A stretch of DNA of 55,512 bases from Chara braunii (taxonomy: Eukaryota > Plantae > Charophyceae). The notes beneath the pieces were generated by a model. It was given only the letters and a program-made list of their open reading frames with translations, was not told the origin of the DNA and ran no database searches. Both the position numbers and the translations under genes were made by a program. The DNA lies in NCBI GenBank assembly GCA_003427395.1, contig BFEA01000039.1, forward strand, positions 3,081,152 to 3,136,663. The letters are read 5' to 3'. This document shows positions 27,939 to 55,512 of this stretch, piece by piece (within the stretch, counting starts at the first letter, position 1; every line of letters starts with the position of its first letter).

Positions 27939-28007
<69 letters not shown>

Positions 28008-30607: not shown

Positions 30608-30695
<88 letters not shown>

Positions 30696-30802
30696 GCGCC
30701 GGCCGCTAGCTGGTATCGAGCTCTTCGAACTCCGAACTCCCGAGCGTCGTTGAGCTCGCCTCTGACGGCGCGAAGGCGTGCCAACTCCAGTGAGCTATCG
30801 AT

Positions 30803-32150: not shown

Positions 32151-32161
32151 AATTCCGTCGG

Positions 32162-35199: not shown

Positions 35200-36540
35200 T
35201 TTCAGTCGCTCTCCTCACTAGAGTCACTCCCTTGGCTGGTCGTTCCACTACTCTCCTCCGAGCCTCTTCCTTCTTCACTCTATCCTTGGGTTTCAATATC
35301 CCCTTCGAACTCCTCGCTAGTCATCGTCCACCAAGAGTCCCGCAATTTCTTCTCCTCGCTAGCGGCCAACGCAAGATTGGCAATCTCCAGGTCCGAGAAA
35401 CCCCTAATCCCTTCTTGCGCGCATCACCTAATAGGTCCCTATCTACTTTGCCGGGTTGTCCTGAGAACAGGGGTTTGATGAAAGCGCCTACCAAAGCCCA
35501 CCACTCAAAATCGGTGAGCTCTAGGGACTCCCAACACAGGGTGAATAGCTCGTGCCCCTTTTCTTCCCCCAAGGGAAATTTTTCAATTACTGGTTCTCTA
35601 ACTTGGACTTTCCTCACTGCGGCGATGTCGGGGTAAAGCAATCGGTAGACCCAAGCAGGGATCTCCCAGGTCCAGCCGTGGGCCGCCCGCGGGATCTCTA
35701 ACCACCCTCGGTATTCAATTTTTTCTCTCTCTCGTCTTCCTGCCTCTCCCCCTCTCAACCTTCTAAGTCGGTCTTGGGTTTTATCCGCTATACTTAGAGG
35801 ATCCTTCCCTTCCGCCAATTCCGTAGCAAAGAACTGTCTGTCGTCGGGAGACAAATAGATCTCCGCTCTTCGCGTGCGGGTACCGTCCTGCGAGACTATC
35901 GAGAAACGGACCAGTGTTTCTTGCCCGTATATTTCGAAGAATTATGTGGAGATCTACCCTTCTTCCTCAATTCTAGGGAGAGTCACTCCATACCTAGATC
36001 CCATTTTTCAGGCCCGTTGCAAGGTTCCTATAGGGTCCCCCCTTTCGTATGTAATGATTGGTCGGCTTACCCTACCCGAGCCAATATTTCCGCTCCCTCC
36101 ACGAGCAAGCTCTCGCACCTCCCTCGAGAGCCTTCGTCTTGCTCCCGTATCGTTCGACGTAACGCTTGTTCGTATTAACCTGTCCTATCCCAAAAACGCG
36201 CCTCCACTAGGTGCACCCTGGCCTCGAGTGGGTTCCCAAGCCACCTAGAGTCCTTCTTGAACCTTCCCTCGACTTCTGACAGCTCTCTCAACGTTCTAGA
36301 GAACCGTACTCCTCTTGCCCCCCTAATAGTGATCGAAAACCTCGCTAAGGTAGTCTCGGACCTCCTTTTCCACAGGGCCAGTCGCCGGACCTCGACGAGG
36401 AAGATCCTCTCGGCCCTAATCTCTTGGTCCTCTCCAAGGCCTCGACCGAGATCGGCTATCCCTACTACCTCGACTTTCGGGCCGTCGTCCCTTGTCTCCA
36501 ACTCCCAATCTATCGAGCTCGAGGTATAGGTAGCTCTCAT
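35200..36540 (-). pseudogene. E1 accessory ORF ('DGP' protein, unknown function)
   Basis: Made of ORFs 36175-36540 and 35321-35854 plus an acidic tail in another frame. DDGPKVEVV..RFSITIRGARGVRF resembles E2 GDGPLVLVI..KLWIGIEGGRRIKY. Confidence 0.55.
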
Positions 36541-36737
36541 GCCTCTCCTCCCCAGGAGAGTAACTCTTCTTTTAAGTCATCTAGTTCCTTGATCACGACA
36601 GCCTCTAACAACTTGATCCTCCGTAAGGCTCCTGGGCGCGCCCTTCTTTCCTCTTCCCATCAAAGGGCCAATATCCGATATAACTCTGCCCTAACCCTTT
36701 CTAAACCCACTAGTTCACCGATGTCGGGTTCACTCAT
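36537..36737 (-). pseudogene. E1 small helical accessory ORF (66 codons, one internal stop)
   Basis: MSEPDIGELVGLERVRAELYRILAL*WEEERRARPGALRRIKLLEAVVIKELDDLKEELLSWGGEA*; its TGA overlaps the next ATG (ATGA at 36537-36540). Confidence 0.55.
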
Positions 36738-36771
36738 GCCTCAAATTCCTCCGTCGGCACGCTATAGCTAT

Positions 36772-37476
36772 TCATATGAGATCCGACGGGTTTAACCCTT
36801 CTAACCCCGCCTCATAGATTTTGCCCAGGTATCGCAAGATGACGGTCGAGACCCTTACGTGTTGGCCCCAACCCTCAAAGGCGTAGCCCAGTCCCTCTAG
36901 CGAGGACCAATTACCCTCGTACGGACTTTGAAGGCACCAGGTCAATAGGGGATGCAGGTCCGACCTTGTGAACCGAAATTGGCGCAGGATCGCGATCCTA
37001 CGCTCTACCGCCTTCTGAACCGCTTCCGATGGATAAACTCGCTCAAGAATAAATCGAGAGACTCCGATGGGGTCACTATCGAAAAACCTAGGTATCTTTT
37101 CCTAACCTGCGTAGGTCACTCGGTAGACCCTAAGGTATTCTTCTCGAGGGCTAGCCTCTTCCACAAGCCTTTCTAAACGTTCTTGGACTGCCGGCACGTC
37201 CACAAGCGGGTCCTCCCTTAATTTTAAATTGCGGACTACCTCCAGAAAGCCTTCCTTAGAAAGGAACACTGTGGCTTCTCCAACTACCAACCCCTGTCTG
37301 CTGCTCACCGTCGCCCGGACAAATGTTCTCCCTCGGAGTATCTCCGCCACCTCCTTCCGAATGGACCTTGTCGGATCGCTCCGACTTTCCTTGGGCAAGG
37401 AGACTTGGACAACTTCCCCTTCCTTACTCACAGGTTCTATCGAGGCCCAAAGAGTCCCGGGAACCCCCCTTATCAT
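36772..37476 (-). pseudogene. E1 accessory family A copy 4 (one internal TAG at 37102)
   Basis: GRTFVRA..EATVFLSKEGF..RVTYAG*EKIPR..LHPLLTWCLQ; the frame continues to TGA at 36772. Confidence 0.7.
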
Positions 37477-37553
37477 CGGGCTTCGTAACCCCGCCGGTTA
37501 GCAACCTGCTCTTCCCCGAAGAGGCGGGCGTACGGGACGTCCGCGGCGTGAGC

Positions 37554-38198
37554 TCAGATCCTCCCAAACTCTCTCAATCTCCAGAATATAGTGGATAACT
37601 CCCCTCTTGGGGGAACCCCAGCATCCACGCACCACGTGTAGAGCCAGAACAATCCCCTAATCCGCACCCCGGATTCCCGAGCTGCTCTAAGTACTGCCAC
37701 TACTCTTTCCTCCGGGTCTCTTAAGAAGGAGTTTGTCAAGAATTGGGGTAAGCTCGCGTGGAGGATTCCGGACGCACGAGGGACCTCGCCGGGTTCGACG
37801 AAGGACACTTGTGACCACGACTCGAAAGTCCCTTCTTCGTAATCAACTAGCACCAGGTTCGTCGCTAACAGCCTCGCGGACTCACGGTACTCCGTATGGG
37901 TCTCTTGGGCTGTTACCAATCCTCTCCACACTTCAGCCCACGTTTCCTCGTTGAGGAAGATCGTAGCCTGAATCTCTGGGAATCGACCGAGGTCCGACGA
38001 ACCTCCTCTTTGCACTCCCTCCTTCCAAGTGAGCCTGCGAGCTCGAACCCACACGTAGGCCCCTTCTTGGATGACTCCGCCTTTCTCAACGCACATCCAG
38101 CAAGGAGTCACGCGAGGGTCTTCCGGAATCAAGACTTTACCCGCGTCACTAGCCTCTATTGCATCTACCGCCCCGTTTTCACTGAGCACAAATCTCAC
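37554..38198 (-). CDS. E1 accessory family A copy 3 (214 aa, start uncertain)
   Basis: EGAYVWVRA..QATIFLNEETW..EVPRASGILHASLPQF..GLFWLYTWCVDAGVPP. Confidence 0.72.
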   Translation of the reverse strand: MRFVLSENGAVDAIEASDAGKVLIPEDPRVTPCWMCVEKGGVIQEGAYVWVRARRLTWKEGVQRGGSSDLGRFPEIQATIFLNEETWAEVWRGLVTAQETHTEYRESARLLATNLVLVDYEEGTFESWSQVSFVEPGEVPRASGILHASLPQFLTNSFLRDPEERVVAVLRAARESGVRIRGLFWLYTWCVDAGVPPRGELSTIFWRLREFGRI

Positions 38199-38264
38199 AA
38201 TCTACCAACGTCATTTTGAAAACCCACCGGCGGTATCTTTCTGGTAAGAGAGTAAAGGGTTTTT

Positions 38265-38864
38265 CTAGGGCCCCCAATCTCCTAAAAATACCCAAAGCTT
38301 CCTACATGGAGGGATACCCTGATCGATGCAATGCGTGTACAGCGTCCACAGGGCTCCAAAGGCCAATCCCAAACTCCTTCCCCTCTCTAGGAGTCTCACC
38401 ACTCTTCCCTCACTCTCTCTCCAGAACACAAAGCTTGGGACCCACGTGGTCACAGGGTAACTTGCCCTCGGGATTTCGTCCGTCCTAGCGAATCTCTCCA
38501 CCTCTACCGCCAGAAATTCGAAGTCCTCTCGAACCCTATCTATCCATCTTCTTCGGACCCCTCTAGCTTCTCTTATCAACGAGTCCAGCCCACCCCCTTA
38601 ACCTAAGACCAGGGGTACGATAACCCTCGACCAAGATTCCGGCTTAACGAAGATGATCGAGGAGACGTTAAAACGCACCTCACCCGTTCTCTCCTCCTCT
38701 TCCTCCGACTCTATCCACACGAAATTTCCTTCTGTCGTAATTTTCCCTCCTTCTAATCTTCTTTAGTCGAGGATTCTCCCGTTGCTCGGGACCAAGCTAC
38801 ACACCCCTCGCTCGTCTAGAGAGGACTCAACAAAACCACGGACGCCCCGGTCAAATCGAACCAT
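38265..38864 (-). pseudogene. E1 accessory family A copy 2 (two internal TAA)
   Basis: ATG 38864 MVRFD..EGNFVWIE..SSIIFVKPESW..EIPRASYPVTTWVPSFVF..ALWTLYTHCIDQGIPP; in-frame TAA at 38763 and 38598. Confidence 0.72.
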
Positions 38865-38869
38865 TCATT

Positions 38870-39613
38870 CTAACCCACCTTTTGGTGGACTCCAAACACC
38901 CTTTGGTACCGGTAGTCTCGCCCTCCTTCACGGTCCCTCTCAGACTCCAGCGATATCCTCTCCCGGATCCATTCCGCTCTAACCCCGTGCAACACCGGGT
39001 TGTCCACGCAATAGGAGTAAAACCAGTGTAGTGAACGAAAGGACAAGCCTCTCCTTCTCTCCCGCCTTACAGATCTCACGACCTTTTCGTACGCGGTCCC
39101 TTCTCCACACACCCTCCTAAATACATAAGAAGGGAAGATCGCCTGGACGCAACCTGTAGCTCGAGGATATTCCTCGTCCCTGGTGCAAGTTACCCTCAGG
39201 CGGAAAGGCAGGCTATGCCAAAGGGGGACTTCTTCGAAGATCCACCTCAGGATAGGTCCCGCGCGCAACTCCCAGTGGTCTTCCTGATACCACCCTAAGG
39301 CCCAGTGAGTGACGAACTCGACCCACGCCTCCCGGCTTAGATAGACCGTGCCCTCGGCACGAACCGCTGCTCGTCGGGCCTTCCCCCCGCTCCTAGGTCT
39401 ATTCCTAGCCCACTGATCTCCTTCCCAAATACCCACTGCGAACCGTGCCCAGAGGAAGACCCCCTTTTCAAGTTTCACTCCTCTCTCGCGCCCCGCAAGG
39501 TATCTCTCTGTACGATGATCCAGAGGGACGCTAAAGCATTCGCGATCTTTGAGAAGGTCTGCCTTCTTGATTTTTACTCTGTCGTCCTCTCCCGCTTCCA
39601 CAATCCTAACCAT
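38870..39613 (-). CDS. E1 accessory family A copy 1 (intact 247 aa, unknown function)
   Basis: MVRIVE..EKGVFLWAR..EGTVYLSREAW..EYPRATGCVQAIFPSYVF..SLHWFYSYCVD. Confidence 0.75.
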   Translation of the reverse strand: MVRIVEAGEDDRVKIKKADLLKDRECFSVPLDHRTERYLAGRERGVKLEKGVFLWARFAVGIWEGDQWARNRPRSGGKARRAAVRAEGTVYLSREAWVEFVTHWALGWYQEDHWELRAGPILRWIFEEVPLWHSLPFRLRVTCTRDEEYPRATGCVQAIFPSYVFRRVCGEGTAYEKVVRSVRRERRRGLSFRSLHWFYSYCVDNPVLHGVRAEWIRERISLESERDREGGRDYRYQRVFGVHQKVG

Positions 39614-39662
39614 GCCCCCCCTGGCTTCGTACCACCTTCTTAACGATCTCTATCAATACCTT

Positions 39663-39980
39663 TCACCCGTCGGACCCGTTGAGGTAGGGTTCCGGTATGA
39701 TCGAGGCCGGTCGCTCACCTCTTCGGTAGGTATGGTAACCTAGAGTATAGAAATACTGGGTCTCGTAGGCCCCCAGAAGTTCCTTCTCCAATTGCGCGAC
39801 GCCAACAGCCTCCTCCCAACTACTAAGAAAGCCTTGTCCTCGATCCGTTCCCTCTTCAACGTAGAGGGCGATGTCCCAATCCCCGGTCCACAGGAAGAAC
39901 CTGTAGCACAACACGTCTACTCCCCCACAGTCACCCATGTTGATGCCCCATGGCTCAAACTCAAAAACCCCTAAGCTCAT
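39663..39980 (-). CDS. E1 accessory family B copy 1
   Basis: MSLGVFEFEP..GGVDVLCYRFFLWTGDWDIALYVEEG..YFYTLGYHTYRRGERPASIIPEPYLNG; the TGA at 39663 is probably premature (W in the paralogs). Confidence 0.72.
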   Translation of the reverse strand: MSLGVFEFEPWGINMGDCGGVDVLCYRFFLWTGDWDIALYVEEGTDRGQGFLSSWEEAVGVAQLEKELLGAYETQYFYTLGYHTYRRGERPASIIPEPYLNGSDG

Positions 39981-40337
39981 ATGTTCTCCACTATCTTCTC
40001 TATGACCGACAAACACTCTCCACCCATCTCACCCATCCAGATAAGCTTCCGGTATAACCGGGGCGGGTCGCTCCCCTCGTCGAAAGGTGCGGCACCCCAG
40101 AGTATAGAAATACCGGATCCCGTACCCTCATAAAAGCTCCCTCTCTAGTTGTGCTTGGCCAACCGCTTCTTCCCAACTATTCAGGAAGGCTTCCCCTCGG
40201 TCAGTCCCTTCTTCCACGTAAAGTGTTATATCGAAATCTCATGTCCATAGGTAAAAGTTGTAGCACCACACGTTTACACCACCACGGTTCCCCACGCTAA
40301 TGCCTGCAGGTTCAAACTCTAGAATCCCCAAGCTCAT
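39977..40337 (-). pseudogene. E1 accessory family B copy 2
   Basis: MSLGILEFEP..GGVNVWCYNFYLWT*DFDITLYVEEG..YFYTLGCRTFRRGERPAPVIPEAYLDG; has stops and frameshifts. Confidence 0.75.
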
Positions 40338-40670
40338 AGGCACCCCACTATTTCTTCTATAATTGCTACTAATACTCTCCAGTCGTCTGACCCGTCGAGA
40401 TAGGCATCCGGAATCACCGGCGCAGGTCGGCCGCCCCTAGGGTAAGTTCGGTACCCTAAGGAGTAGAAGTAACTGAATCCGTACCCTCGCAGCTCACCTC
40501 TAGCCCCACGGGAGTCGTTGACCGTCGCCCCCCAATCCGCGGAGGAAATTCTCTCACTGGTCTTGCCCCTTTTCTACATAGAGGGCCACATCAAAGTCTC
40601 CCGTCCAGAGGCGGAAGGTATAGCACCACACGTCGACCCCACCGTAGCTTCTTACACGAATCCATTCCAG
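40334..40670 (-). pseudogene. E1 accessory family B copy 3, 5'-truncated by the E2 insertion
   Basis: GGVDVWCYTFRLWTGDFDVALYVEKG..YFYSLGYRTYPRGGRPAPVIPDAYLDGSDDWRVLVAIIEEIVGCL*. Confidence 0.75.
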
Positions 40671-41218
40671 TGTGGGGAAACCCAGGGAGGGGTACCTGCT
40701 GTTCGCTGAATCCAGGGGGTACAAGGCCTGTCACTTCATTGCCCCCACTTCAGAGGTCCTCAGTGGCCAGCTGGAACTTTTAGAAGTAGCAGACTCCCTA
40801 CAGAGCTTAGTTTGCTGCCCCGGTCATGATCGAGAATTTCAGAGGGTTCTAATAGCAAAATTTGGATACCTCTAAGTTCAAAGCCCACAACGAGGAAAAC
40901 CATGAACATGCGTTAGTACATTAATCATGCTTTGTTCTTGCATTCGATCTCTCTGTCTCCTCTCACGATACCATGTTCGTGAGCAGCCCTCCACCAATAG
41001 TCCTTCAGCATGTAGTAAGGTAGATATCTTTTTACTTCGTACGTTACCCGAATTCAACTTGACGATTCTTCTCTCGACTCAACTTACAAAGGCAGGGGGG
41101 GTTGATAGAAAAAGAAATGTATGTTCACTCTCAGTCCTTCGTTTGCCCGGACTCCAGCCTATACAGGGAGCGAGGGGATGTAATGCAGAATGCCGCTCAG
41201 GTCTGGTTTCGGGCTCAC
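40671..41218 (-). repeat. E2 3' LTR (verifiable part; the LTR continues rightward, end not determined)
   Basis: Begins TG on the plus strand; matches 54965-55512 with about 15 substitutions in 548 bp. Confidence 0.93.
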
Positions 41219-43409
41219 ATCAAGAATGATGCGAGGTTCATGTCTTCTCAAAACGGACAATGAATTTAACCGAGATGGGCTTACCGCTCTAGCGTGCGCG
41301 ATCTGAAGGGAAAACTGTTCACAATGAAAGGTAAGCCTCTCGACTATCCGTCCCTGAAATGTCGCACAACACTCCCTTCTCCCACAGTCAAATAAAAGCA
41401 GGACACAAGAACAGACTGGAGAACGTTACTCCTTCACTCCTTCTAGAGTTTGCAGGACACACACAGAGAGACAGGCAAGTAACTGCCAATCAAGAGTTGA
41501 ATTCAACTGTATTCAAGAATTCATCCGACATGTATGCGCAAAAGCTGAACGTTGCAGTTCACACAAAGAGAGGAAAGGAACGAGTAAACGCCGAACACAA
41601 AATAGCAGTGAACACAGTCCGAACGAGCAACGCTCTCCCTCTCGCTGTCCTCCTATCCCCTTGTTTCTCTTTTTTCCTCTACATCTCCCTCTTGCGGTTT
41701 TCACTTACCCTTAGTCTAATTAATGCAGGACACAAAAAAAAACAGTCGGGTACTGTCTGCTCACCCCCCCTTTTGTCCTCGTCCCTTCTCTCGTGCTCGC
41801 TGCCTCACGTACACGGCGATCGCATAGAGTATTCCCTTTGAAGCTTCTAACTCACTCTCCCTGTGCCGGGAGGTCCAGAAGAGACCAGGCGAAGAGTCGA
41901 TCCAGCAAGAAGCAAGCTCGACATTTCCCGCCCTCGAGCTTAGCGAAATAAACAATGATATCTTCAACGAGACTCCCCATCAGCGGACCCAGTCAGCATT
42001 TGAGGGGTCAGTCCCTTGCTACAAGTTTACAGGATAGACAGCGGATCAGTTCCACCTAGTTACTCTCTCCATCTCGATGTCACTCAGTTGCGTGACTTCC
42101 GAACGGAAGGTCTAAGCGAAGGTTCTAATTCGGTTGAAAGAGCGATACCCACGAAAGCCCAGCCCTTCTTATCTCGGCGGGTTATAGGATACCACAAATA
42201 CCTCTAATCGTGCTTTCTCCAGCCCGATGTCGTTCGTACCTGAGATGAAATGAGAAACTCTTCACCTCGCGGGACCCGTGATCCCTCAGTAGCGAGATNG
42301 ACNTAACAAGCAGTCAAGAAAAACGGAAGCCTGAGCACCCTTCGACGANGGTGAAGGTTCACTGNGACTGTTCAAGGGCTGCCGGCGTCAACGGACTCGC
42401 TTAGCTCGTGCCTTCTCTTCTCTTCTCTATGGAGCATGTTCTTACAGCGGCTCTAATTCACACAGAGGTCTTCGGAGGCTTACCNCCCACACGTGTCGCG
42501 CTCTCCGACTTTCCCCCTCCCTCTCTTTCACTCCCTCTCCTTCTCCCTTTTCGCTCGCCTGCATCCCACCGCAGGATACCGCTGGCACACTCTCCTTCGA
42601 GCACGCCCGGACGCACATGAAGGCTCACGCATACTCGAATGCTCGGGATCGCGGCACAGGGGCGCTTGTTCACAAGCACGCTTATCACAAGTCTGCAGAG
42701 TGTGTGCGGTGTTCGCCTAGCTCGATTCACAACCGCGTGGACCCAGACGCATCCCCTTCCGAAGGCCTGGCACACCGTGCTCGTCTCCCCTTCTCTCCGC
42801 CTGCATTCCGCTACGAAGTGCGCTGGGTACACCGTGCATGCTCCCCTCTGCAACCGTCCGTATCCCCTATGTAGCCTTCGGTACGCCCGGCTCATGCTGT
42901 TCTCCGGACATGTACGACGTGGCTGAGTGTTCTCCCCCGTCTGCCCCAATCGCCTGGCGACCCAGTAGGCTATGCACTCGCGATATTAACCGAGCCCGTA
43001 TCTCACAGCGATTCCGGCCCGGTACATGGGGACTCAGTCTCCTGATAATTGTATCCTTGGCCTCTGTGTCAACATTCTCCCTCCTGGTACCTCCACACGG
43101 CCCCGCAACGTACGACTGCGGATCGTGGGCTGAATTCAGTCCCGTTCCAAAATGTCCACTTCCGACTGGGTCAGGGGCCTGTACCTGTGTCCCAAAAAAA
43201 AGAAATTCTGCGGTCAACCACGACCTCAGTTCTTCACCAGACTTGACATAACCATTTCAAAATTTCCCAGTCGTCGGCGTTGTCAATAGCCGGACCAAAG
43301 CTAGAGTGATACTTGTTGACACCGCGGCAATTTCTGGCCTGAGACCACGCAGATGCTTGTGACATTTCAACGTCGTACCAATGCAGGGTCTGGAGCGTGC
43401 CGATGCAGA

Positions 43410-44070
43410 CCCAAGACCGAGCCTGAAAATGATGCCGCGGNGTGTACCACGCCAATGNCAAACCAANACCGTACCTGAAACATGTCGAACACNGNAAGAT
43501 GCAGCGGCNCGGTAATAGTACCGACCCTGAAGTAAATCGCCNCAATGATCCCGGACCTGAGAATAAGCTNCCACAATGGTACCGAACCTGGAATAAACTG
43601 CCGCCAAGGTCTCGAATCTGAAATGAANTACCNCAGTCGTCCCAGACCTNAAAATAAATCACTGTAGAGGTTCCGAACCTGAAATAAATCGTCANNGTGG
43701 TCCCGGACCTGAAAATAAGTCACCCCAGAGGTTNCGAACCTGAAATAATTCGCCGTGAGGGCGTCGAACATGAAACGAAACACCGCGATACCACCGAACC
43801 CGACCAAACCCGAAATCCAATACCGGGCTGCTGTGCCACGCAGATGCCGAACCCATACAACCGTGCCATGATAATTTCGTACCTGTCCCGAACCTGATAT
43901 ACAGTGCCGCAACGTTTCCGGGCCTGAAACAAGCTGTCGCCAAGGTTCCAAACCTGGAACAATTGTCGTAGTGGCCCCGGCCCTGAAAATAAATCACCGC
44001 AGCTGTCCCAAACCTGACAATAAGTCACCGTAGTGAAACAACTGTCACCGGGCCCATACCGAACCTGGAG
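43410..44070. repeat. ~30 bp minisatellite with core CCGRACCTGAAATAA
   Basis: Cores at ~43521, 43551, 43582, 43612, 43642, 43673, 43702, 43734, 43888, 43918, 43948, 43977, 44008; many N bases. Confidence 0.85.
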
Positions 44071-45084
44071 CACGTTAGACACCACAGGACGTATCCACTC
44101 CGTAACAATCCTCGTATCCGTACCGAACCAAACACCATACTGTCGACCCAAGGTAGCACCACGCCAGGCTGTCCATGCGACTCCCGCTCTCAGAACATCC
44201 CGACTGTGGTAATGTTAGTAATCAAGCAAACCAGAGAAAGCGACGCAGGGAACCTCGACCATTGGAAGTAGTGAAAACTGTTAAAATCCGGGGAAAATGA
44301 TCAATCTGGGGTCAGAGCTGAAGGCGGGTAATCGAGGTGAAATTAGACCAATCTCCCAATAGTCATGGGTTCTTGTCCCTTTCATCGTTTTTAATCATTC
44401 TCCCCTTTTCTTAATTCTATTGTCGGAAATAGTAAAGTAACCGTAAGTTCCCCAATATTAAGTTCCGAGAAGGCTTAAATGAATGGTCAAATTCCTTTTG
44501 TTTCTTTTCTCTTTCACCATTTTAAAACTTTTTCTATGTTTTTAATTCCATTGCCAGGAACATAAAATAACAAGGGTATTCCCCCTATAATTAAATGCCA
44601 TGAAAAATAAAGACATTAAGGGATATTATGTTTTTTCCTTCTCCCCTACTGGTCTTAATCCCTTTTCCCCATCTTTAATTATGGTACTAAAATAGACAAA
44701 AATTTGAGGCCTCATTTCGGCCCTGGTCGTATGCTGCAAAAACGTTACGGCGAGGTCTGTTCCCACGATGCCTCTCCGCGGCAGACCGATCCGGGTCCAA
44801 CCCTCTAAACGGCCGGAAATGACGGTCTCCTGATAAGCCGAGTGCGCCCACCCATCTCGCTATCTTTGAGGGCTACTCGTAAGGTTCAGTGCGCTCAAAA
44901 TCTGGGGTGTCCTGAGTTCCCCATATCTTTGTTGCTTGGTCAACCCGGAGTACCGTCAAAACGCGGACTTGTCCTTGAGCCTAAGACCCAAAACCGCAGA
45001 TTTCAGGCGGCGCACTGCTTGTGGCCGCCTGACAGTTAGCCCGGACCACTTCTCGACGCCCCCATCGAGCCCTACCCACTTACG

Positions 45085-48000
45085 TCAGACGAAGCGGACA
45101 AGCTTCAGGGTGATGGCCCGTAAAGGTCGCCCACGTCGGCGTTCAATTGTCTTATGTTTCAGTTTGTGATGAGTCATGAGGCTAAGAAGATTCTTCTTGA
45201 CTTTCCTGTTCCTGCTGGTTTTTGGCCTCGGCACGATCCTCTTTTTCTTCTGTCTTTGCCCTGAGGAGGGTGCCGACCCGCCAGTACGTCTAACGCGAAC
45301 TCTCTGTCTAGCCCTCTTGAGCACGAATAACCATTTCTTCTCTCTTCCTAAAGCTAACCCTTTGACCTTTCTTTTCTCTATTATTTTTCTCTTCTTGGAA
45401 TTCTCCCCTGCCTCGAATCGTCTCAAGGGGGCTCCATCCTCCATTTTGGCTTTTCCTTTCCCTTTCGGGATTGTCAGCGATAAGGTGGGTCCAGGTCTGG
45501 GTTTAAACAACTTTAATCTTGCACCCGCCACAGGGTCCTTCCACTTGGATCCGTCTAATTCTGCTATCATATATGCACCACAGTCGAGCGCCTCAACCAC
45601 TCTGTAAGGTCCCATCCATCTATTGGCGAGTTTTCCGGTCCAGGTCCTCTCCAGTGTTGCGCCGTAGAGAAGGACCATATCTCCTACGCTCACCCTCTCT
45701 CTCCTGATCCGCACGCTCTTATCCCATCTCTCTTTACCTTTGTCTCTTTCCACTGTCAGACGATCTGCCGCTGTCATAAGGTTGTCTTCCAAACCGTAGG
45801 CTATTTGTCTTGTTCGGGCAGCTATGAGTTCCTCCCTGGACATCTCCTCCGCCCAGTCGACATTTGTCCAGCTGTTGACGTGAAACTCTATGGGGAGCGC
45901 CCGCTTCCGCGGCGAAAGAATAACCTCCTCTTCATCGATCCGTTGTCCGTCCTTCTCCGCCATCACGTAATCCGTGTCAGTCTTCTTCGATGTAGATCCT
46001 CTCGCCAACTTGGTGGCTGCCACCCTTATGGGTGTGGTCGCCATATCCCCCTCAAAAGTTATCTTGATGCTCTGGCTCCTGACCGACTCCTTTCCTTTAC
46101 TCGGCTTTACTCTCCTTGCTTCGACATTCTCCTTCATCGAAGGGGACATCCATACATCTCTCAGATCATCTGCCCACTTGACGTACTTGCGGTCGTCAAG
46201 CACGACAAGTCCCTCATCTATTGCCCGTTGGAGGTCCGGGCAATCTCTCTTGATATGATCATCTCCTCTACAGTAGACGCAAGAGTTTCTGGGAGTGGGT
46301 GGCCTGTCGTCTGTGCCTCTGAAGGTCGAACCTCTCGCTGCTCTGGGGTCAGGGGACTTCGGATACGGATCAGACGACGCGCCATATCCCCCTCTCTCAT
46401 TCCTGCCGCGTGAATCATTGCGGTGGTCTCCGTGTTCGTATCGCCCGCGTGAATCATCGCGTCGGTTTCCTCGGTCGTATCGCCCGCGTGAATCATCACG
46501 TCGGTCTCCTCGGTCGTACCGCCCGTGTGAATCATCACGTCGGTCTCCTCAGTCGTATTGCCCACGTGAATCATCACGTCGGTCTGCTCGGTCGTACCGC
46601 CCGTGTGAATCATCACGTCGGTCTCCTCGGTCGTATCACCCTCGTGAATCATCGGGTCGATCTCCTCTCTCATATCTATCGCCCCTGTATCCGTCTCGAT
46701 CCGACCTGTCATATCTGTCGTCTCTATGTCCATCGTGGTCCGATCTCTTATATCTGCCGTCCCTATGTCCATCTCGGTCCGATCTCGCATATCTACCATC
46801 CCTGTATCCGTCTCGCCGGCCCTGATCCGACTCCCATCGGCCTCGAGAGTCGCCTCTACCCCCGTCAGGCTCATAGCGAGGGCTACGCGAAAAATCATCC
46901 AGCCTCCTGGCTCGCCCATACGTCTCGCGAGCTCTGCGGTCCTGGTCTATCTCATCATCCCTACGTCGCCATGGCTCGTCGTCTCTCTCCCTCTCCGTCG
47001 CACGATAATCAGTCAGCGTTCGAGGATTTCTATCCTCGACACTCCTCCAGGAATCAGTGTTCCTCTGGTCCCAGCGAAGTGAATAGGGTCCTCCGGGCTT
47101 GTCCCGGTATGTCGTGGCTCTTGTGGTGGTCACAATCTTTGTAACTTGTCTTGTCAATCCCTTTACCATGTCCCTTATCTCCTTCACTTCCTCGGCGACG
47201 GCTTCATTTTTCTCCGACCAGGGATAGTCCTTGAAATCAGGACATCTATCAGTGGCATACTTCTTGTAGAAAGAGAAGTCAAGTCTCCTCATCCCTCTCT
47301 ACACCAAGTCCTTGTAGTCGTCTGCCTCTGCCTTTATTGCAAGCTTTAGGACTTCTGGGAAGTCAAGCTTGTCGCGCGAAAGATTTCTAAGTATACTTTT
47401 TTGTCTTCCCTTGGACAGGTGTCCGATGAAGATAGTACAGCGCTTGGCCTCTGAGATCTTCCCCTTTTTCATCAGCACATCGGAGATCTTCTGGAAACGC
47501 ATCCCAAATGCCCGTACGCTCTCATCTTCATCTTGAGTAATTGTCTCAAGGTCCTTGATGGAGTACTTGTTATCCTCCAATTTGTAAAGCTCAACGAGAT
47601 TCTTTTTATACGTAGTCCATTTTTCATCCTTCGGTCGAGCTTCCTTAACTTCCTTACCGAGACTTGGGTCCATATTAAATACGAAGTTCTCTATAATCTC
47701 TTCCTCCGACCACTGACTCCGGCTAGCGTGAAGCTCTCACTTCTCCAGATATTCTGTAATGCCATAGCCCCTGAAAGTAGGAGGCTCTGAGGCCTTATGC
47801 GTAATAATATAGCGATCCTTGCTCTCGTAAGGGAGTGGGTGTGATTCCCCCGTTTGGGGGTTGAAGACACGCCGCGGCGGTGCTCTATCTCTATCTTTGT
47901 CCCTCCAATAGGAGTCCCTCGAACTCTTTCGCCAGTCGTCCCTGTGCTTATCCGCCATGGTTTCCCTCCGCTCATACTCGGGGGAGCGTCGTCTCGTCGC

Positions 48001-48255
48001 TTCTCGTCGGCCGCTCGAGGTTGCTGTCTTCAGAGCCTCCTGCGGTTCTGTCACGACCGGCTCGCCCATTACGTCGGGCTCTCTGTCGTTGGTTTGGTCA
48101 GCCCATCTCAACGGTGCTTCCCGCCTAATTCGTTCCTTCAGATCCCTCAGAGCTCTGTCGGGCGATGTCATGTACTCCTCCCCCACTTCACCCGTGGTTG
48201 GTTGTGGCCCCATCGCGTCTGGTTCCATAGGACACTTGAAGACGGAGTTGGGCAC
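45085..48255 (-). pseudogene. gag: E2 Gag fused in frame to integrase C-terminus (PR, RT, RH and INT core deleted)
   Basis: ORFs 47737-48255, 47299-47673, 46636-47292 and 45085-46203 share one frame with about four internal stops. CVYCRGDDHIKRDC at ~46240-46281; SPRKR|ALPIEF junction at ~45900; KLANRWMGPYRVVE GPY motif. Confidence 0.87.
46410..46810 (-). repeat. Coding tandem repeats in E2 gag (39 bp units RYDRGDRRDDSRG, then 30 bp units DRYDRSDRDG)
   Basis: cgcccgygtgaatcatcacgtcggtctcctcggtcgta is repeated about six times. Confidence 0.92.
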
Positions 48256-48341
48256 TCTCGCCAGGTGTTACAGCCCGGACCTATGACAGTTGCTGCAGCC
48301 CGGACCAGTTTCCTTGTCACGGTTCACCTTCATCACCAACC

Positions 48342-49260
48342 CTAGCTCTCGGCTGCCCTGATCACCACCACCAGTACTCGGTTCCGGTCGCGGATCTCGT
48401 GCTCTCCTTCTACCCCAAGAATCCCTGTGTCTAGGTAAACCTCTCTTTTGGGATCGGTCAACAAGGCCGCGCCTCTCCGGATCTGCAGTACACCCGTGAT
48501 AGGATCTCTACTCCTGTGGCAGATCGCGGTCCCAAGCCTAATCAGTGTCTCCTGATCAGCACCCCTCAAGAGCCTCCGAGCGTCTATCTCTGTCCTCCTT
48601 GCTAGGTCTCCCAGCCCGTCCTGAATCGGGCAGCTCTCTAAAGGAGGAAGCTCCCCTCCTACTGCCATCCAAAATCGTTCATCGACCTTTCTAGCTTCCA
48701 CTATCCTTCCAAGAGCTTTCAATCTCTATTTCATCTCTTTTAACTCCCAGACGGCTATGAGGTCATATGTCTAGCACCTAAGGTAAGTCGGTGCTATAAC
48801 CACTCGTAACCTCATCGCCGACAGCTCGAATATGTCATAGAATGTCTCAAAATCCTCCTCATCTCCACTATCCTCTATGGCATCTAAAGTCTTTATCGAT
48901 TCCCTCCAGTACCGATCGTGAGCGGCTAGCACCCTGAGTATCGCACCGTCTGTTACAACTCTCCCTAACTCTCCAGCTTTCTTGGCTTCGCTTATCTTCA
49001 ACCTCTCAGCCTCTCTGGTCGTCTTGTACCATGCCCTTATCCGAGACTGCCCTTCGAAAGATGTCACTCGGAGTACATATTTTATCCTTCGTCCTCCTTC
49101 TATTCCAATCCAAAGTTTTGTCCCCCTTGCCTCACGCAGCGCACGGCGGACACACTCTGCCTCCTCAACTATGCACAGTCTGGTATGGAGCTGGAGCTCT
49201 ACGATCACTAACACCAACGGTCCGTCCCCCTCATGTCCTATCGCTACCTCCCTGCGTTAC
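48342..49260 (-). pseudogene. E2 accessory ORF ('DGP' protein)
   Basis: 48771-49217 and 48342-48722 share a frame across premature stops; GDGPLVLVIV motif; same position before gag as E1 35200-36540. Confidence 0.6.
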
Positions 49261-49290
49261 CTTGTCCTCCGTTGTCTCGCCCTCTGCAGA

Positions 49291-49551
49291 TCACTCCCTA
49301 GTTCCTTCACGTGATACACTTCTAGCCTTTACCCTCTCCAGAAAGTCTGATCTCCACGCCTGGATAATCTCTCTTTCATCCCTAAACAGACTCTCTAGCT
49401 TTCTCGTCACGAGCTCAGCCCTACGCAACTTGCCCTCATCCTGGCACGACCAGATCTCCCTTAACTTGTTCCCCAACTCCTTTACCCGGTTCAAGAGTGA
49501 CTCTTTAATGCGCTCTCTCACTCTTTCGACTGCCTCACTCTCCTCTTCCAT
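49291..49551 (-). CDS. E2 small coiled-coil-like accessory ORF (86 aa)
   Basis: E/R/K-rich helical sequence; ATG lies 2 nt after an upstream TGA; same position as E1 36537-36737. Confidence 0.55.
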   Translation of the reverse strand: MEEESEAVERVRERIKESLLNRVKELGNKLREIWSCQDEGKLRRAELVTRKLESLFRDEREIIQAWRSDFLERVKARSVSREGTRE

Positions 49552-49553
49552 AC

Positions 49554-50613
49554 TCAGTCCTCATCTCTTTCCAGTTCATCCTCTCACCCTCGCTCTAGCC
49601 TCCGCTATCGTCTCGTCGTGGAAGTGCTCCGCGTGCATATAACCATGTGACCATATCATCACCTCATAGGAAATCGAGGTCTGGAAGGTCACTCGCGCCA
49701 GTACATCAGCTTTATGCTCGTGGATCAATTTCTGGCTCGTTGTCTGCACTCCCTCGCTGTCAAATCCTCATCTATGTATGCTCGAAGGAGTACTGTCACA
49801 GTGTACCCTGTGCTTACCAGTTGCTCTCCTACGCGCATCTTTGTGGTAGTCCTCCCCGGCATTCCCTACGCTTCGACCTCGAAGAGAGACCTCACGTCCT
49901 CTAGCCCCACGTAATCGATCGCCGTGCAGTACCTAATCAGATCGACTGGCCTCAGACAGTCCACCTAGCTAGTAACGACTATGATGTCGTCAAGCGTCTC
50001 TCTACTGGGCGGTCCCCACCTCACACAAATGGCGTAGTATACTTCCCTGAAACGGGGCGCTGAGCCCTCCCAGAGCGCGTAAAGTGTGTGGTCCACTGCT
50101 CTACTCAAACGTTCTACACTCCTATAGGTCTGCCCTATCACGAAGGCAGGAAGTCCGAATCGCCAATCCTCTCTCGGGTGGAGGGTCGGATGCGGGGGAC
50201 CGTATACCAAGCGGCTCCAACACGTCCTCCCTCCAGAGAGTCTCGCCAGTTGTTGATTAGCGATCACCTCTGGCCAACGACTCGCTTCTCCACCAAGCCC
50301 TGCTTGCCCCTGCGAGCGTCAGTCCTACCTCTAAATCATGTGCTCTATCCGCTATTAGATGTCCGACCCCTTCTAGGTCATGAGTCCTCTCGGGTCGTTC
50401 ATCTCTCAGTATCACTGTCCAAAGGAAGAGTCCCTCTGCGAGCCACGTTCCCAGGTATCGTATCGGAACACGCCCTGTCCCCTCTAACGCCACAGGAAGA
50501 GGAATGTCGTATCCAACCGCCGCCTCTCTGGGTCTCATAAGCTTCCTCACACTATAGGATTCGGACTCTCGGGAGAAAACATAAGCTAACCAGGCTACTA
50601 AGTCACTCCTCAT
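49554..50613 (-). pseudogene. E2 accessory family A copy 3 (frameshifted)
   Basis: AEGLFLWTV..EGVGHLI (50257-50613) and HPREDWRFGLPAFVI..EVYYAIC (49965-50267); acidic end EDELERDED*. Confidence 0.6.
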
Positions 50614-50685
50614 CTCCCCTCCGACTCTCGATCAGCATCACTCTACTCCCTCCGACGCACCCTATTTCTCGACGTTGCTAACTCC

Positions 50686-50978
50686 TCAGACAACTCTCCC
50701 ACTCAGGTCCAGTATGGTCGAGTAGGTGCTGTGCGCTCTCCCGTCTGCTCCATGGAAGTAGATAGTAAACTCGACGTACCTCTGGCTCCTCCGTATCTCC
50801 AGGGCATGTTTCGTCATGAGTCTGATCTGTCGCTCAACAATGTCCAACGCCTCTCCTTCCCGGCCTCCCGTCCTATCTCGTCTTAGGGAAAGAGTCACCC
50901 TCAGTATATCCCGGTCTGCAATCCTCTCCAGTACGCTCTTCTCTAAACCTCACTCGGATATGTCCTGCCTCTAGTCAT
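50686..50978 (-). pseudogene. E2 small accessory ORF, unknown function
   Basis: ORF 50686-50898 plus an ATG at 50978, 2 nt after the upstream TGA; joining them requires a frameshift. Confidence 0.4.
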
Positions 50979-50980
50979 CT

Positions 50981-52099
50981 TCATGCATCTGGCATATCCT
51001 CGTATGTGTCCTCATCTACCCTCAGGCCCCACGGGATATCCTCCTGTCCCTCGGCCTGAAGTAAATGTTCCCAGCCGTCCTCCTGCAGCGCCCCTCCACC
51101 TACCTGCTCCTGTCCCTCGGCCTGCGCCAGATCTCCCCAGCCCTCGTCCTGGTCGCCCCAAGGGTCTATGTCATCGAAGTCCTCCCAATCCTGATCCTCA
51201 GCGTACCACGCAAGATCGTCTGCCTCTGGATATATCTCCCGGTAATACTCCTCAATCTCCCCGGTCAAGACGAGATGGTCCGGCCTCTCCTCACGAGTCT
51301 CGGCTAACAGCTGTCCTACTCTAGCTAAATGATTTGTAGGCCTCTGAGCCTCTCTCTCTAGTGCCGTCCAGAAGGCTAGGGGCTGGTACAGAGAGTATAG
51401 GTCAGGGCTCCCGATAGGTACAATGACCCGCAGGAACTCAATCAGCTGGAGTCCTCGCTCGCCTACAAGCGGCCCTGCTACAAACTGAGCATACAACACC
51501 CAATCCCTGTCAGTGTACCCTCGGCAGAGGCCGTCCAAGTCAAGAGCCGCAAAGTAGATCTCACCCAGACGCCTAAGTCCCCAAAGCTCCTCTGCCACGA
51601 AGCATGGAAGTGTCACACGCAGTCAACTGCTAGGATATGGGAAGTGTCCTTCAATCCTGAAGGTCGTCGTCACTCTCCGAACACCCCCGTGCAGCCGCTC
51701 TACCTCACCCCGCGCGGAGTCCGTTCGAGTCAGTAAGATCCTCCTCGCGGTCTGCTCCTCTCGCCAATGATCGTGCACGATGCCGTGAAAATAGACCTTG
51801 CCTAGCACCTCTTGCGAGTAGTAAATGTGGCCCACCACCTCTATGCTAGTCGTGCCTGGTCGTCGCCACCTCTGACTGTCTAGCTCAAACGTCTCGATGA
51901 CATACGTCCACAAGTGTACGTCTGGACCCAACTCCGTCGATGACCATCGACTCTCTATCGCATCGGTGGAAACCCCTCTGGCCGGCAGATCCAGCGCCAC
52001 CCTGCCTGGCGCTACTGTCTGTGGAGGTCTAGAACATTTAGCGTCGTCAATCTGAAGCTCCACTCCACTGACATGCTCTACCATCGATCTGCTCTCCAC
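50981..52099 (-). pseudogene. E2 accessory family A copy 2 with acidic W/D/E tail (one internal TGA at 51623)
   Basis: GPDVHLWTY..VVGHIYY..GHFPYPSS*LRVTLPCFVAE..EIYFAA..LQLIEFLR..EYYREI. Confidence 0.75.
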
Positions 52100-52160
52100 T
52101 ATCGGCCGATATCATCAGCTAAGCTCACTCAACCGCCGCCCTAATGTGCTCCTCTGCCTC

Positions 52161-53177
52161 CTACGCCTGGAGTGCTACTCCTATCCTGGGGAAGTGGGCG
52201 TCCATAACGTCGATCTCCTCCTCGTCAACCTCACTCTCTGGGTCGACCCAGTCTGGCTCCCAGGCGTCCTCGTCGTCCTCTCGCTCCCAACCCTCGTCGT
52301 CAAACTCGTCCTCGACGCGGTATGGCGCCTGTCCTATAGCCTGGTAGTANTCCGCCAACTGATGGCCGTATATCAGAGGTCGCCCGACGTCCTCACTCCA
52401 CCAGCTCCCCCAGTCGTCTGAGAAGAGCCGCCCGATGCAGGTCACGTACTCGGGGTCTGCTCGGAGCTCGCGGTCTAGCCAATCCCAAACGCACGGAGAC
52501 TGGGGCCACTTGTCGTCTATCGAACGGATCAGCTCTATAAGTTGAACCCTCTCGTCACCCCAACGAGATCCACCGGTCGCGAGCGCATAATAGATGTAGT
52601 CGAGGTCGTCAGGTCTTCTCGCCAGGATCTTGAGATCCTGATAGGCTAGGTATACCTCGACCACTCCACCAATACCTCCAAAGACGCTCTCTACTACGAA
52701 CGTCGGAAATTTCGCCCGCAGACTCCTAGCACTCTACGGAAAAAAACCGTCCCATGCTACCACCAGCTCGCCCGTGATATCAAGAGGAGGGCGTCCGTGA
52801 AATAGGGTCAACGGGTCGCTCGAGTCCTCCGCTCGGAAGGCAGCTACCTCGTCCCTCAGGTAGCGTAACGCCCTGCTAATCGCGCCACTAGTCCCTGTTG
52901 TCGCGAGGCCCACCACGGCCTCCCTGACCGCGCCCGGTCCTAAGTACAAGTAGGCTCTCACTACGCCCACTCCTTGCCCAGGCCGGTGCTCTCTGTGCGT
53001 CCAAAGCCACACGTCCTCGGACAAGATTATGGACCTCCACGCAAACTAGCCGTCAACATATCGAACGCTGCGCCCGGGGATCGTGAGCTCCACCAGATCC
53101 CCTTCTATGAGTTCAAGGGGCTCCGAGTCCCAGTCGATGGTGGCCTCATAGACCTCTACTTGCGCTCGCGGCCACAT
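52161..53177 (-). pseudogene. E2 accessory family A copy 1 with acidic tail (two internal TAG)
   Basis: ORFs 53046-53243, 52734-53024 and 52161-52664 share a frame: SEDVWLWTH..VVRAYLYL..GFFP*SARSLRAKFPTFVVE..EVYLAY..VQLIELIR..YYQAI. Confidence 0.75.
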
Positions 53178-54266
53178 CCAACTGGCGACTAGAGAGAACG
53201 CAACAAGAGGGATAGGTAGAGATAGTAGAAGAAGGTTTGTCAATTGTAAGGAAATTTCGGCAGCGCTTCGCCTCCCTTCGTAAGGAGCCCCGATATCACG
53301 CTGTCGATCTATCTCCTAACTATTCAAAGGTCCCCTATGGTGCTACGGGGCGAAGTCCCAGCTCTAAACAAGGCAACATGCCCTATAGCCGAGTTCCCTC
53401 GAATAGAAGGCGTGTGCTCTGTTCGAGGGAACACCGCCTCCGACTGCTCCGGTCACCCCTCAGGAGTACAAACGTCCTCCCCTATCTAAGAAACAGAATT
53501 AAAAGGTTGTGACCTTCTTTTCTCTATTTTTTTTTTTAAGCTATTTTAATATTTTAAGGGAATTTTAATGAATTTAAATAAATAAAAATTATTTTTATCT
53601 TATAGAAACCCACTGGCCCTCGACTACTGCCTAGAGGCATGCAAAGCTCCCCTAGAGAGTAGTGCGGCAAATGCGTTTCTCTTTCCACCAATATATATTT
53701 TTTTAAATTCTAATTAATTTACAATAATTACATTTACATAAGATACGACCCCTTTCTTATTTTACATACACTTTTATCCCTTGTGCATGTCTTTGCCCGA
53801 CCTCAAGGGGTCCCCGAAAATTTTGGCAGCACTTCGCCTCCCCCGGTGGGGATGGGGTGTGGCCGAAGGCCTCAAAATAGTCGCCGAAGGAGTATAGGAT
53901 AAGGGGAAAAAAATATCAGAAGAAAATTTTAATTTTTAATCAATTTTTTAGTATTTTTTTTAATTATTTCCTAATTAATTTGAAATATTTTATAAATTTT
54001 CTCAAAAATTGGGCAGCATTTTCCCTCCCCCCGTGGGGATGGGGTTCGGGGCTTCCGCCCCTAGCTCAACAACCCGAAAGGAAAAACATCATAATTTAAA
54101 AATAAAACAAAATTTAATTAATCCTTTTTCGTTATTTTTAATATTTTCTTTAATTTAATTTTTCAAAAAGGAAAAGACCGAAGAATTAAAAAGGCAAAAT
54201 ATTCCCCGTATATTATCCTTCCTCTTCGAGGTTGTTATCCGCCCCAAAACCCTGGATAAGACTTCC

Positions 54267-54310
54267 CCTAATTAGGGTTTTCCCTAATTAGGGTTTATCT
54301 ACTAGGGTTT
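54267..54310 (-). promoter_or_regulatory. Cluster of three telo-box motifs (AAACCCTA) in the E2 leader
   Basis: ccctaattagggttt twice, then tagggttt. Confidence 0.5.
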
Positions 54311-54942
54311 TGGGGGCTTCGCACGCAACTGCACGCTATCTTCCAAAACTCGTTCAGTCCCAAAATTTTCCCGTCAACTTTACTCAAAATTTGCAAAAAC
54401 TTAGACGGAACATTTTTTATTAATCCCTTTTATGGTATTTTACACACAAATTTTTAAAAACTAAATATTTAATTTTTGTTTTACTTTTTTTTTCTTTGCT
54501 GTTACTTACTGTTCTTGCCTCTAACCACCTCCGTTTGCTCCGTCCAAGGTATCAAAACGACGGGAAAAATAAACTGAGCAGATTTGGTACAAGGAGTTAT
54601 CTCAAGAAAATGTACCAATTTCCCGCAAAAAATAAAAAACAAAAATTGGAAATTTCGAATTAATAATTTGATTTTCAAAAAAAAAAATCGTTATCTCGAA
54701 GTCTGACCGTTAGATTTCAGCAAGAAACGTCTCATAACGTTCCCCTCGTCAAGACGTCAAACTTTAGCCTGTGCGTTCTTCGCGAGAAAATGCGCGGATT
54801 ATGAGATATCTAAAAAACACTAATTCAAAAAATAATCAAAAACAGAACTAATCAAGAAAACGAACTAATTAGTGCATGGACCAATCAACCCAGGCACCCC
54901 CGTTATTTGGGGAAGGCCGCGGCCTTGGGGGTGTTGCTCCCC

Positions 54943-54960
54943 TCCCTAACAACGACGCCA
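54943..54960 (-). promoter_or_regulatory. E2 primer binding site, tRNA-Asp-like
   Basis: Minus strand TGGCGTCGTTGTTAGGGA, 4 nt inside the 5' LTR; 14/18 match (all differences transitions) to TGGCGCCGTTGCCGGGGA, the complement of the plant tRNA-Asp 3' end used by Athila-type elements. Confidence 0.8.
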
Positions 54961-54964
54961 AAGT

Positions 54965-55512
54965 TGTGAGGAAACCCGGGGAGGGGTACCTGCTGTTCGC
55001 TGAAGCCAGGAGGTACAAGGCCTGTCACTTCATTGCCCCCACTTCAGAGATCCTCAGTGGCCAGCAGGAACTTTTAGAAGCAGCAGACTCCCTACAGAGC
55101 TTAGTTTGCTGCCCTGGTCATGATCGAGAATTTCAGAGAGTTCTAATAGCAAAATTTGGATACCTCTCAGTTCAAAGCCCACAACGAGGAAAACCATGAA
55201 CATGCGTTAGTACATTAATCATGCTCTGTTCTTGCATTCGATCTCTCTGTCTCCTCTCACGATACCATGTTCGTGAGCAGCCCTCCACCAATAGTCCTTC
55301 AGCATGTAGTAAGGTAGAGATCTTTTTACTTCGTACGTTACCCGAATTCAACTTGACGATTCTCCTCTCGACTCAACTTACAAAGGCAGGGGGGGTTGAT
55401 AGAAAAAGAAATGTACATTCACTCTCAGTCCTTCGTTTGCCCGGACTCCAGCCTATACAGGGAGCGAGGGGATGTAATGCAGAATGCCGCTCAGGTCTGG
55501 TTTCGGGCTCAC
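54965..55512 (-). repeat. E2 5' LTR (3' portion; continues past the window)
   Basis: ~97% identical to 40671-41218 and adjacent to the PBS. Confidence 0.93.

Follow-up and report, generated by a model that had tools for sequence, protein, structure and literature searches.

How might eight to ten separate genes, lying one behind another ahead of the gag gene of a retrotransposon, be translated? The question is raised by a stretch of 55,512 nucleotides from the alga Chara braunii (assembly GCA_003427395.1, contig BFEA01000039.1, positions 3,081,152 to 3,136,663; hereafter the window), in which six-frame translation and Pfam matches to gag, zf-CCHC, protease, reverse transcriptase (RT) and RNase H reveal two decayed Ty3/gypsy elements, E1 and E2, both on the minus strand. 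A sequence-only reading had noticed a cassette of crowded open reading frames (ORFs) upstream of each gag and had interpreted their stop-start overlaps as the mark of a translationally coupled, virus-like accessory module. The account favoured here, with a probability of roughly 0.55, is that the elements, decayed members of a high-copy Ty3/gypsy clade, possess eight to ten or more separate genes under selection between primer site and gag, likely read from one long mRNA by leaky scanning.

Gene content and junctions of the two cassettes

Ten ORFs precede gag over 5.5 kb in E1, where at least nine had been counted and rightly described as co-oriented and packed: A1 (cut), A2, A3, B1, B2, B3, C1, a 66-codon ORF, G1, and C2 (Table 1). 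They comprise three A paralogues, which are tandem copies at a spacing of 357-360 nt, five B/C paralogues, and two others; B1-B3 and C1-C2 form one superfamily (B versus C, hhalign probability 89%, E = 2.6e-6). In this copy the successive starts lie -4, -4, -8, +5, -20, -4, -8, -4, +8, and +10 nt from the preceding stop, nine of the ten junctions falling within 10 nt and four being ATGA overlaps. All six junction motifs quoted by the sequence-only reading are in the sequence, namely ATGA at 40337-40334, 39980-39977 (where the upstream frame does need the 1-nt indel already named), and 36540-36537, TAG-5nt-ATG at 38872-38862, and TGA-2nt-ATG at 50983-50976 and 49556-49549, the last two in E2; to these, E1 adds ATGA at 37476-37473 and 8-nt ATGnnTRR overlaps at 39613-39606 and 36737-36730. 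The start of B3 lacks an ATG both in the window and in L001, the one other copy compared as DNA (1,261 nt, the remaining copies being protein gene models), a GTG at 38198 being common to both. Gene-model starts coincide with those of B2, C2, gag, and family A, and in P0053, a gene model of another copy, B2, G, C2, gag, and protease follow one another in that order.

The E2 cassette holds about eight co-oriented ORFs before gag rather than the six or so proposed, spanning about 4.8 kb: D1, D2, E, F, K, a helical-looking ORF, G2, and J. Its junctions are looser than those of E1, several starts being broken, and the near absence of intergenic space claimed for it was not borne out, with gaps of 76 nt between D1 and D2 and 72 nt between E and F. 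Both of its TGA-2nt-ATG motifs call for a correction: the TGA at 49556 is out of frame with the long upstream ORF, which stops at 49578-49576, and the frame opened at 50978 closes after 11 codons. The D1 stop is matched by two other copies, and the D1 and D2 starts are likewise matched. D1 and D2 are paralogous (31%), and ORF F is a possible, weak candidate for a third D paralogue. The cassette is modular, given that the depth of D2 lies far below that of its neighbours and that DNA joints in other copies skip D2 (50726-52123, part of E included). A further DNA joint, between D1 and F, is of the kind that recombination between paralogues would produce. Long acidic C-terminal tails were observed in D1 (52161-52330), D2 (50981-51220), and C2 of E1 (35202-35320).

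Selection was assessed by the ratio of nonsynonymous to synonymous substitution (dN/dS). In an ungapped DNA comparison, A2 and A3 differ at 18, 18, and 51 sites in codon positions 1, 2, and 3 (dN/dS 0.12), while the window against L001 gave 0.22 for B2 and 0.13 for B3, as opposed to 1.4 and 1.8 in shifted-frame controls; the first 35 codons of B3, upstream of any ATG, gave 0.23 (confidence interval 0.05-0.60). The A and B genes are thus shown to be under purifying selection (0.12-0.22 where testable: A2/A3, B2, B3), and the non-neutral evolution implied by the accessory-module proposal is upheld for them. The distant pairs B1/B2/B3, C1/C2, and D1/D2 were not counted, their alignments being protein-guided and their dS saturated. 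Also set aside, as post hoc, was an analysis of where in the codon the best-supported differences from other copies fall (the best 80 of about 2,640 rows, 62 scored and 18 in long terminal repeat (LTR) or leader left out), in which a third-position excess was expected and the reverse was seen (8 of 46), an outcome compatible with conservation of codon positions 1 and 2.

These data bear on the reading that a single polyprotein or spliced gene has been broken by decay, or that the ORFs arose by chance in a purine-rich strand. The copies are indeed full of stops and indels; yet the frames change at the junctions and the B2 stop stands at the same place in L001, which argues for separate genes, in agreement with the sequence-only reading, while the D1 stop is also kept elsewhere and the A junction repeats in register. 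Moreover, dN/dS lies far below 1, and the four frameshifts within ORFs (40534, 38290, 35432, 49731) match indels of other copies in place and direction. The reading is refuted for A, B, C, D, and G1, and is very improbable for the cassettes at large. What stands of the proposed accessory module is a set of separate, selected, co-oriented genes lying, in a high-copy gypsy clade, between the primer site and gag.

That E1 and E2 share gene families in a similar order, as had also been proposed, fared less well. Profiles compared across the elements by hhalign gave E values of 0.24 and 0.68, neither significant, and the best cross-element pairs among 120 pairwise tests, D1-B1 and G1-G2, were reached by 10 and 16 of 2000 shuffles, the next by 162. 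These counts fail correction for the number of pairs, and homology between the two cassettes is borderline. The 'DGP' motif, taken as a shared mark of G1 and G2, does not occur in P0010, another copy of the E1 gene.

Depletion of AUG and the probable mode of translation

Internal methionine is found at only 11 of the 3,139 codons of the cassettes, whereas gag-pol has 51 in 1,868 (P = 6e-13). It is the most depleted of the 20 residues (0.12x), isoleucine (1.23x) not being depleted. Out-of-frame ATG is about halved in E1 (23 versus 44.2 +/- 5.5 expected by codon shuffle), as opposed to 69 versus 55.0 in gag-pol. Among the 64 triplets, ATG ranks second for depletion in E1, in E2, and in L001 and first for enrichment in E1 gag-pol, and the antisense strands show no ATG depletion. 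Its density climbs at the gag start, where the internal purge ends. Only two of the six ATGs in the B2-B3 blocks are common to L001, most being private to one copy. Upstream ORFs without internal AUG, as in RNA of the rice tungro bacilliform virus (RTBV)/badnavirus type, are therefore a feature of these cassettes.

Since AUG is purged throughout the ORFs, which coupling through overlaps does not need, leaky scanning is favoured over stop-start coupling. In the proposed mechanism, the LTR-driven transcript would lose its AUG-containing leader as a 5' intron, so that scanning 40S subunits would arrive immediately upstream of the first ORF; each start, mostly weak and in one case non-AUG, would capture a share of the subunits, and the remainder would scan on across coding sequence free of AUG, reaching one gene after another and, last of all, gag. 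On this view the stop-start overlaps would be a consequence of close packing, with some local reinitiation perhaps contributing. Six of the ten E1 starts, gag counted among them, have a pyrimidine at -3. Of 253 YAG sites in E2, the two next to D1 rank first and second, and they also outrank each of the 154 in the E1 cassette; an acceptor-like tract within 60 nt is lacking at every other start (best 0.60 pyrimidine versus 0.83). That the cassette ORFs are translated at all is inferred.

The principal competitor, and a distinctly less probable one, is termination-reinitiation at the overlapping AUG, aided by a cis element, as in calicivirus TURBS and SART1, or by an element-encoded activator like the TAV of cauliflower mosaic virus (CaMV). 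Overlaps of this kind mark caliciviruses, SART1, and CaMV (PMC5902531; PMC10275272). The tight E1 junctions resemble those systems in their AUGA-type overlaps and 1-10 nt spacers, and reinitiation would spare gag the losses from ten leaky starts. On the other hand, it has no need of AUG-free ORF bodies, yet the bodies are purged; the E2 gaps of 76 and 72 nt are wide for it, and B2/B3, the sole junction compared in a second copy, has no AUG. The 18S-pairing core TGGGA lies within 90 nt upstream of one of ten E1 starts and two of eight E2 starts (3 of 18 against a background of 0.21), although, this core being known from animal viruses, a plant variant could be missed; nor was a TAV-like protein recognised here. 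The translational coupling originally advocated is thus left with genuine stop-start overlaps and no convincingly enriched TURBS-like or Shine-Dalgarno (SD) signal, the AUG purge pointing more to leaky scanning. A mixture of leaky scanning and stop-start reinitiation is possible.

It is improbable that each ORF has its own subgenomic mRNA, made by alternative splicing in the style of complex retroviruses or by internal promoters, the packing being mere compaction. The leader acceptor indicates that splicing is probably in use, and ab initio gene models link parts of the cassette with gag-pol; such models are, however, predictions, the only RNA joint listed in E2 is also present in DNA contigs, acceptor-like tracts are wanting at the other starts, and subgenomic mRNAs leave the AUG purge unexplained. 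A captured bacterial or phage operon, whose overlaps would be relics of prokaryotic coupling, accounts for the ATGA and 8-nt overlaps, and anti-SD pairing is slightly better before E1 starts (mean -7.3 versus -5.7 kcal/mol, P = 0.03). The E2 starts, in contrast, carry no anti-SD signal (P = 0.57), the A1-A3 junctions come from tandem duplication inside the element, and operons do not purge methionine. With no prokaryotic match either (0 of 14 in PHROGs, none in phage genomes, and just four copies of these elements among 1.84 billion representatives), the captured-operon reading is already largely refuted and its probability is slight.

Several considerations weigh against leaky scanning of a single message. 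Seven of the ten E1 junctions require this copy's stops or indel to be read through, a lesion-free reading close upstream of the junction being found only at A1/A2, B1/B2, and B2/B3; for B2, B3, G1, and C2, other copies have open codons where this copy has its lesions, and for A2 and A3 paralogues do. G1 of another copy (P0010) is annotated with a start 8 codons downstream. Low internal methionine recurs in other copies (5 of 1,423 cassette codons versus 91 of 3,836 in gag-pol; 3 of 1,225 versus 52 of 2,554), but these are related and so not independent, and the out-of-frame ATG depletion is weaker in E2 (31 versus 40.5 +/- 4.9). Some upstream starts stand in strong context (B1; the E2 helical ORF), while the E1 gag start has T at -3 where the model expects a strong last start; ten leaky starts would leave a small share for gag, and leaky scanning does not require stop-start overlaps. 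The leader intron is predicted from one element, with no spliced read among those listed. RNA reads matched at 80% likeness, which is not evidence of expression, numbered 1,888 for E2 in one run, on both strands (277 versus 332) and tracking DNA depth (rho 0.88), and 43 in another; for E1 they numbered 237 in one run, with a 3:1 strand bias (library strandedness was not recorded) and about five times the E2 RNA/DNA ratio, and 2 in another.

Element structure and the cassette proteins

Table 1. Features of E1 and E2 in the window, with the basis of each assignment.
Feature	Coordinates	Strand	Basis or remark
E2 5' LTR, 3' end, ends CA	54963..55512	-	continues past window; 548-nt direct repeat with 40671-41218
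Primer-binding-site-like motif directly after E2 5' LTR	54945..54960	-	sequence
E2 leader, AT-rich (GC 0.37 vs 0.55), predicted 5' intron	53190..54944	-	poorly conserved among copies
Polypyrimidine tract, two YAG sites 12 and 5 nt before D1 ATG, predicted splice acceptor	53182..53221	-	acceptor ranking
E2 ORF D1, 338 codons, acidic tail, two stops	52161..53177	-	start, open frame, end match P0057, P0058, P0060
E2 ORF D2, D1 paralogue, one stop, missing from most copies	50981..52084	-	P0056
E2 ORF E, start region broken	50686..50984	-	comparison with copies
E2 ORF F, two frames, one stop not common to other copies	49866..50613	-	comparison with copies
E2 ORF K, frameshift near 49731	49576..49862	-	comparison with copies
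E2 small helical-looking ORF	49291..49551	-	six-frame translation
E2 ORF G2 ('DGP' ORF), start uncertain	48771..49256	-	sequence, copies
E2 ORF J	48342..48725	-	six-frame translation
E2 gag (broken), fused to integrase C-terminus at about 45909-45496	45835..48333	-	Pfam Retrotrans_gag; tblastn
E2 3' LTR, 3' end	40671..41218	-	adjoins and truncates E1 ORF A1
E1 ORF A1, 5'-truncated, one stop, frameshift near 40534	40334..40670	-	including P0011
E1 ORF A2, three stops, 1-nt indel near its end	39977..40337	-	DNA/paralogue comparison
E1 ORF A3, one stop near end	39606..39980	-	DNA/paralogue comparison
E1 ORF B1, 247 aa, intact	38870..39613	-	open frame
E1 ORF B2, two stops, frameshift near 38290	38179..38864	-	L001 comparison; terminal stop kept in L001
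E1 ORF B3, likely non-AUG start	37473..38201	-	stop at 37556 not common to L001
E1 ORF C1 (B/C superfamily), two stops	36730..37476	-	hhalign B vs C
E1 small helical-looking ORF, 66 codons, one stop	36537..36737	-	sequence
E1 ORF G1 ('DGP' ORF), one stop	36067..36540	-	P0010, P0053
E1 ORF C2, acidic tail, start codon lost in this copy, frameshift near 35432 and several stops	35202..36058	-	P0003, P0009
E1 gag, CCHC knuckle, two stops	33083..35191	-	Pfam; relatives; junction inspection
E1 pol: protease, RT, RNase H (broken)	30808..33225	-	Pfam, relatives; integrase not in window

The two 548-nt repeats of E2 (54965-55512 and 40671-41218) are identical at 533 positions (97%; Kimura two-parameter distance 0.028) and end in CA. 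With a primer-site-like motif, presumably akin to Athila-type sites, after one copy and the other copy abutting the middle of an E1 ORF, E2 is most simply read as a complete element, its pol deleted, nested inside the E1 cassette, the outer end of its 5' LTR lying beyond the window. The insertion cuts the first visible E1 ORF, so that the E1 cassette is probably longer than seen, its 5' part lying beyond the window; no E1 LTRs were found in the window. At 45909-45835 the end of E2 gag runs straight into the integrase C-terminus, protease, RT, and RNase H being deleted and the entire cassette retained; the copy is non-autonomous. Gag with a CCHC knuckle is followed by the order protease, RT, RNase H, integrase, the integrase being placed after RNase H by close relatives and represented in E2 by its C-terminus. 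LTRs and integrase set the elements apart from Caulimoviridae, which lack both. No chromodomain, the mark of chromoviruses, followed integrase in seven relatives, though the models of these genes may be truncated.

A search with the RT piece found 51 relatives at E = 1e-10 or better, of which 50 are named C. braunii proteins (identity up to 88%) and just one comes from outside the species; the viral contigs searched contained none. Both cassettes are multi-copy, summed contig depth, a rough measure, being about 280-1,200 over E1 and 9,000-88,000 over most of E2, as against about 10 for single contigs. Within 54728-55512, depth drops from some 13,000 beside the primer site to about 60 deeper in the LTR, with many loose ends at 55008, from which most family copies would carry a different LTR. 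Elsewhere in E2, a 39-nt tandem repeat in gag (46391-46815) encodes a stretch rich in R/G/D/Y, and a low-quality tandem stretch with Ns (43367-44200) lies between the coding end and the 3' LTR. A 180-nt repeat with a (GA)n tract, probably another small element, occurs at 27940-28119 and 30624-30803, one copy cutting the E1 RNase H, and nested inverted repeats 12-17 kb apart (9062-9314/21123-21380 and 6665-7861/22425-23654) suggest that another part of the window contains a large DNA transposon.

The cassette protein families have no relatives outside these elements among the databases searched. Pfam gave no match better than E = 0.03 among 20 cassette pieces and none for five read-through genes. 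A full HMMER pass with the B family over the 1.84 billion representatives returned four proteins, three of them named C. braunii and one encoded on L001; the D family search returned five, all C. braunii; a B1 search at near lengths found none among 653 candidates, and the ESM Atlas gave no usable match for D1. AlphaFold models were unusable (pLDDT 38.8 for B3, 43.7 for A3), and a single fold search, the A3 model not included, gave no match at E = 0.001. No env-like transmembrane segment was found among 21 segments (highest 19-residue hydropathy 1.59). The genes have duplicated repeatedly, have diverged deeply under purifying selection, and include optional modules, a pattern that may hint at a role against host control; it is tentatively proposed that the products are soluble proteins, tandem-amplified and gained or lost as modules, which may serve the element against controls such as silencing. 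Of the functions put forward by the sequence-only reading, anti-silencing and movement are still conjectural. In the public Chara gene models P0002, P0003, P0010, P0052, and P0059, cassette ORFs and pieces of pol are merged with domains that look host-like (lipase and helicase among them), and these models are likely annotation chimeras.

Known systems and significance

The closest parallel is the pregenomic RNA of RTBV, in which leaky scanning passes through AUG-free ORFs over 900 nt and uses a non-AUG start, the same being predicted for badnaviruses; small ORFs before the capsid/RT gene, short overlaps, AUG-free bodies, and one non-AUG start are all shared with the cassettes (PMC5902531). 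RTBV differs in having two such ORFs over about 900 nt as opposed to at least ten over 5.5 kb in E1 and about eight over 4.8 kb in E2, and in its shunt, in place of which an integrating LTR element here has a predicted leader intron. Leaky scanning was shown by mutation for green-algal bicistronic mRNAs, which are similarly marked by AUG depletion before the downstream ORF and a weak first start (10.1101/2024.07.24.605010); those, however, are host genes of chlorophytes with mostly two ORFs, whereas the present case concerns a mobile element of a streptophyte alga.

Among retrotransposons, the Ogre/Tat/Athila (OTA) non-chromoviruses are likewise plant Ty3/gypsy elements with long internal regions and extra ORFs 5' of gag (PMC6317226), one or two in Ogre (PMC6431247) and in known plant elements generally (PMC6431247; PMC6317226). 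The second RNase H family (aRH) by which that literature recognises Tat/Ogre was found by Pfam in none of seven pol relatives, and the excerpts consulted mention neither tandem paralogue arrays nor an AUG purge in OTA elements. Drosophila 412/mdg1 carries sORF1 and sORF2 between the 5' LTR and gag, lost in some copies (10.1101/2020.09.24.311225); these are two short ORFs, unlike the eight to ten of 66-367 codons found here.

No description of such a cassette was found in the literature, the 2018 Chara genome paper and its supplements, which lay outside the search, possibly bearing on this claim. That paper reportedly describes a large Chara-specific gypsy family, which may be the clade seen here. 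Leaky scanning and extra ORFs before gag are already known, and what is likely new is the scale, ten genes against two or three per message. In its boldest form, to which slightly less than an even chance is given, the proposal is that a family present in thousands of Chara genome copies runs the longest leaky-scanning polycistron yet seen, with ten or more cistrons and over 5 kb of AUG-purged sequence on one mRNA encoding duplicating, modular new accessory proteins and then gag-pol, a virus-like operon evolved in an LTR retrotransposon.

It is rare for a eukaryotic mRNA to have upward of two or three ORFs translated, and LTR elements are usually credited with one or two additional genes. Chimeras of cassette ORFs likely account for some annotated Chara 'genes', and several protein families without known relatives have been kept and multiplied under selection by a very abundant element. 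If the proposal is true, scanning-based translation would gain a new limit from a naturally occurring message of ten genes, and multigene expression in plants and algae could draw on its native parts.

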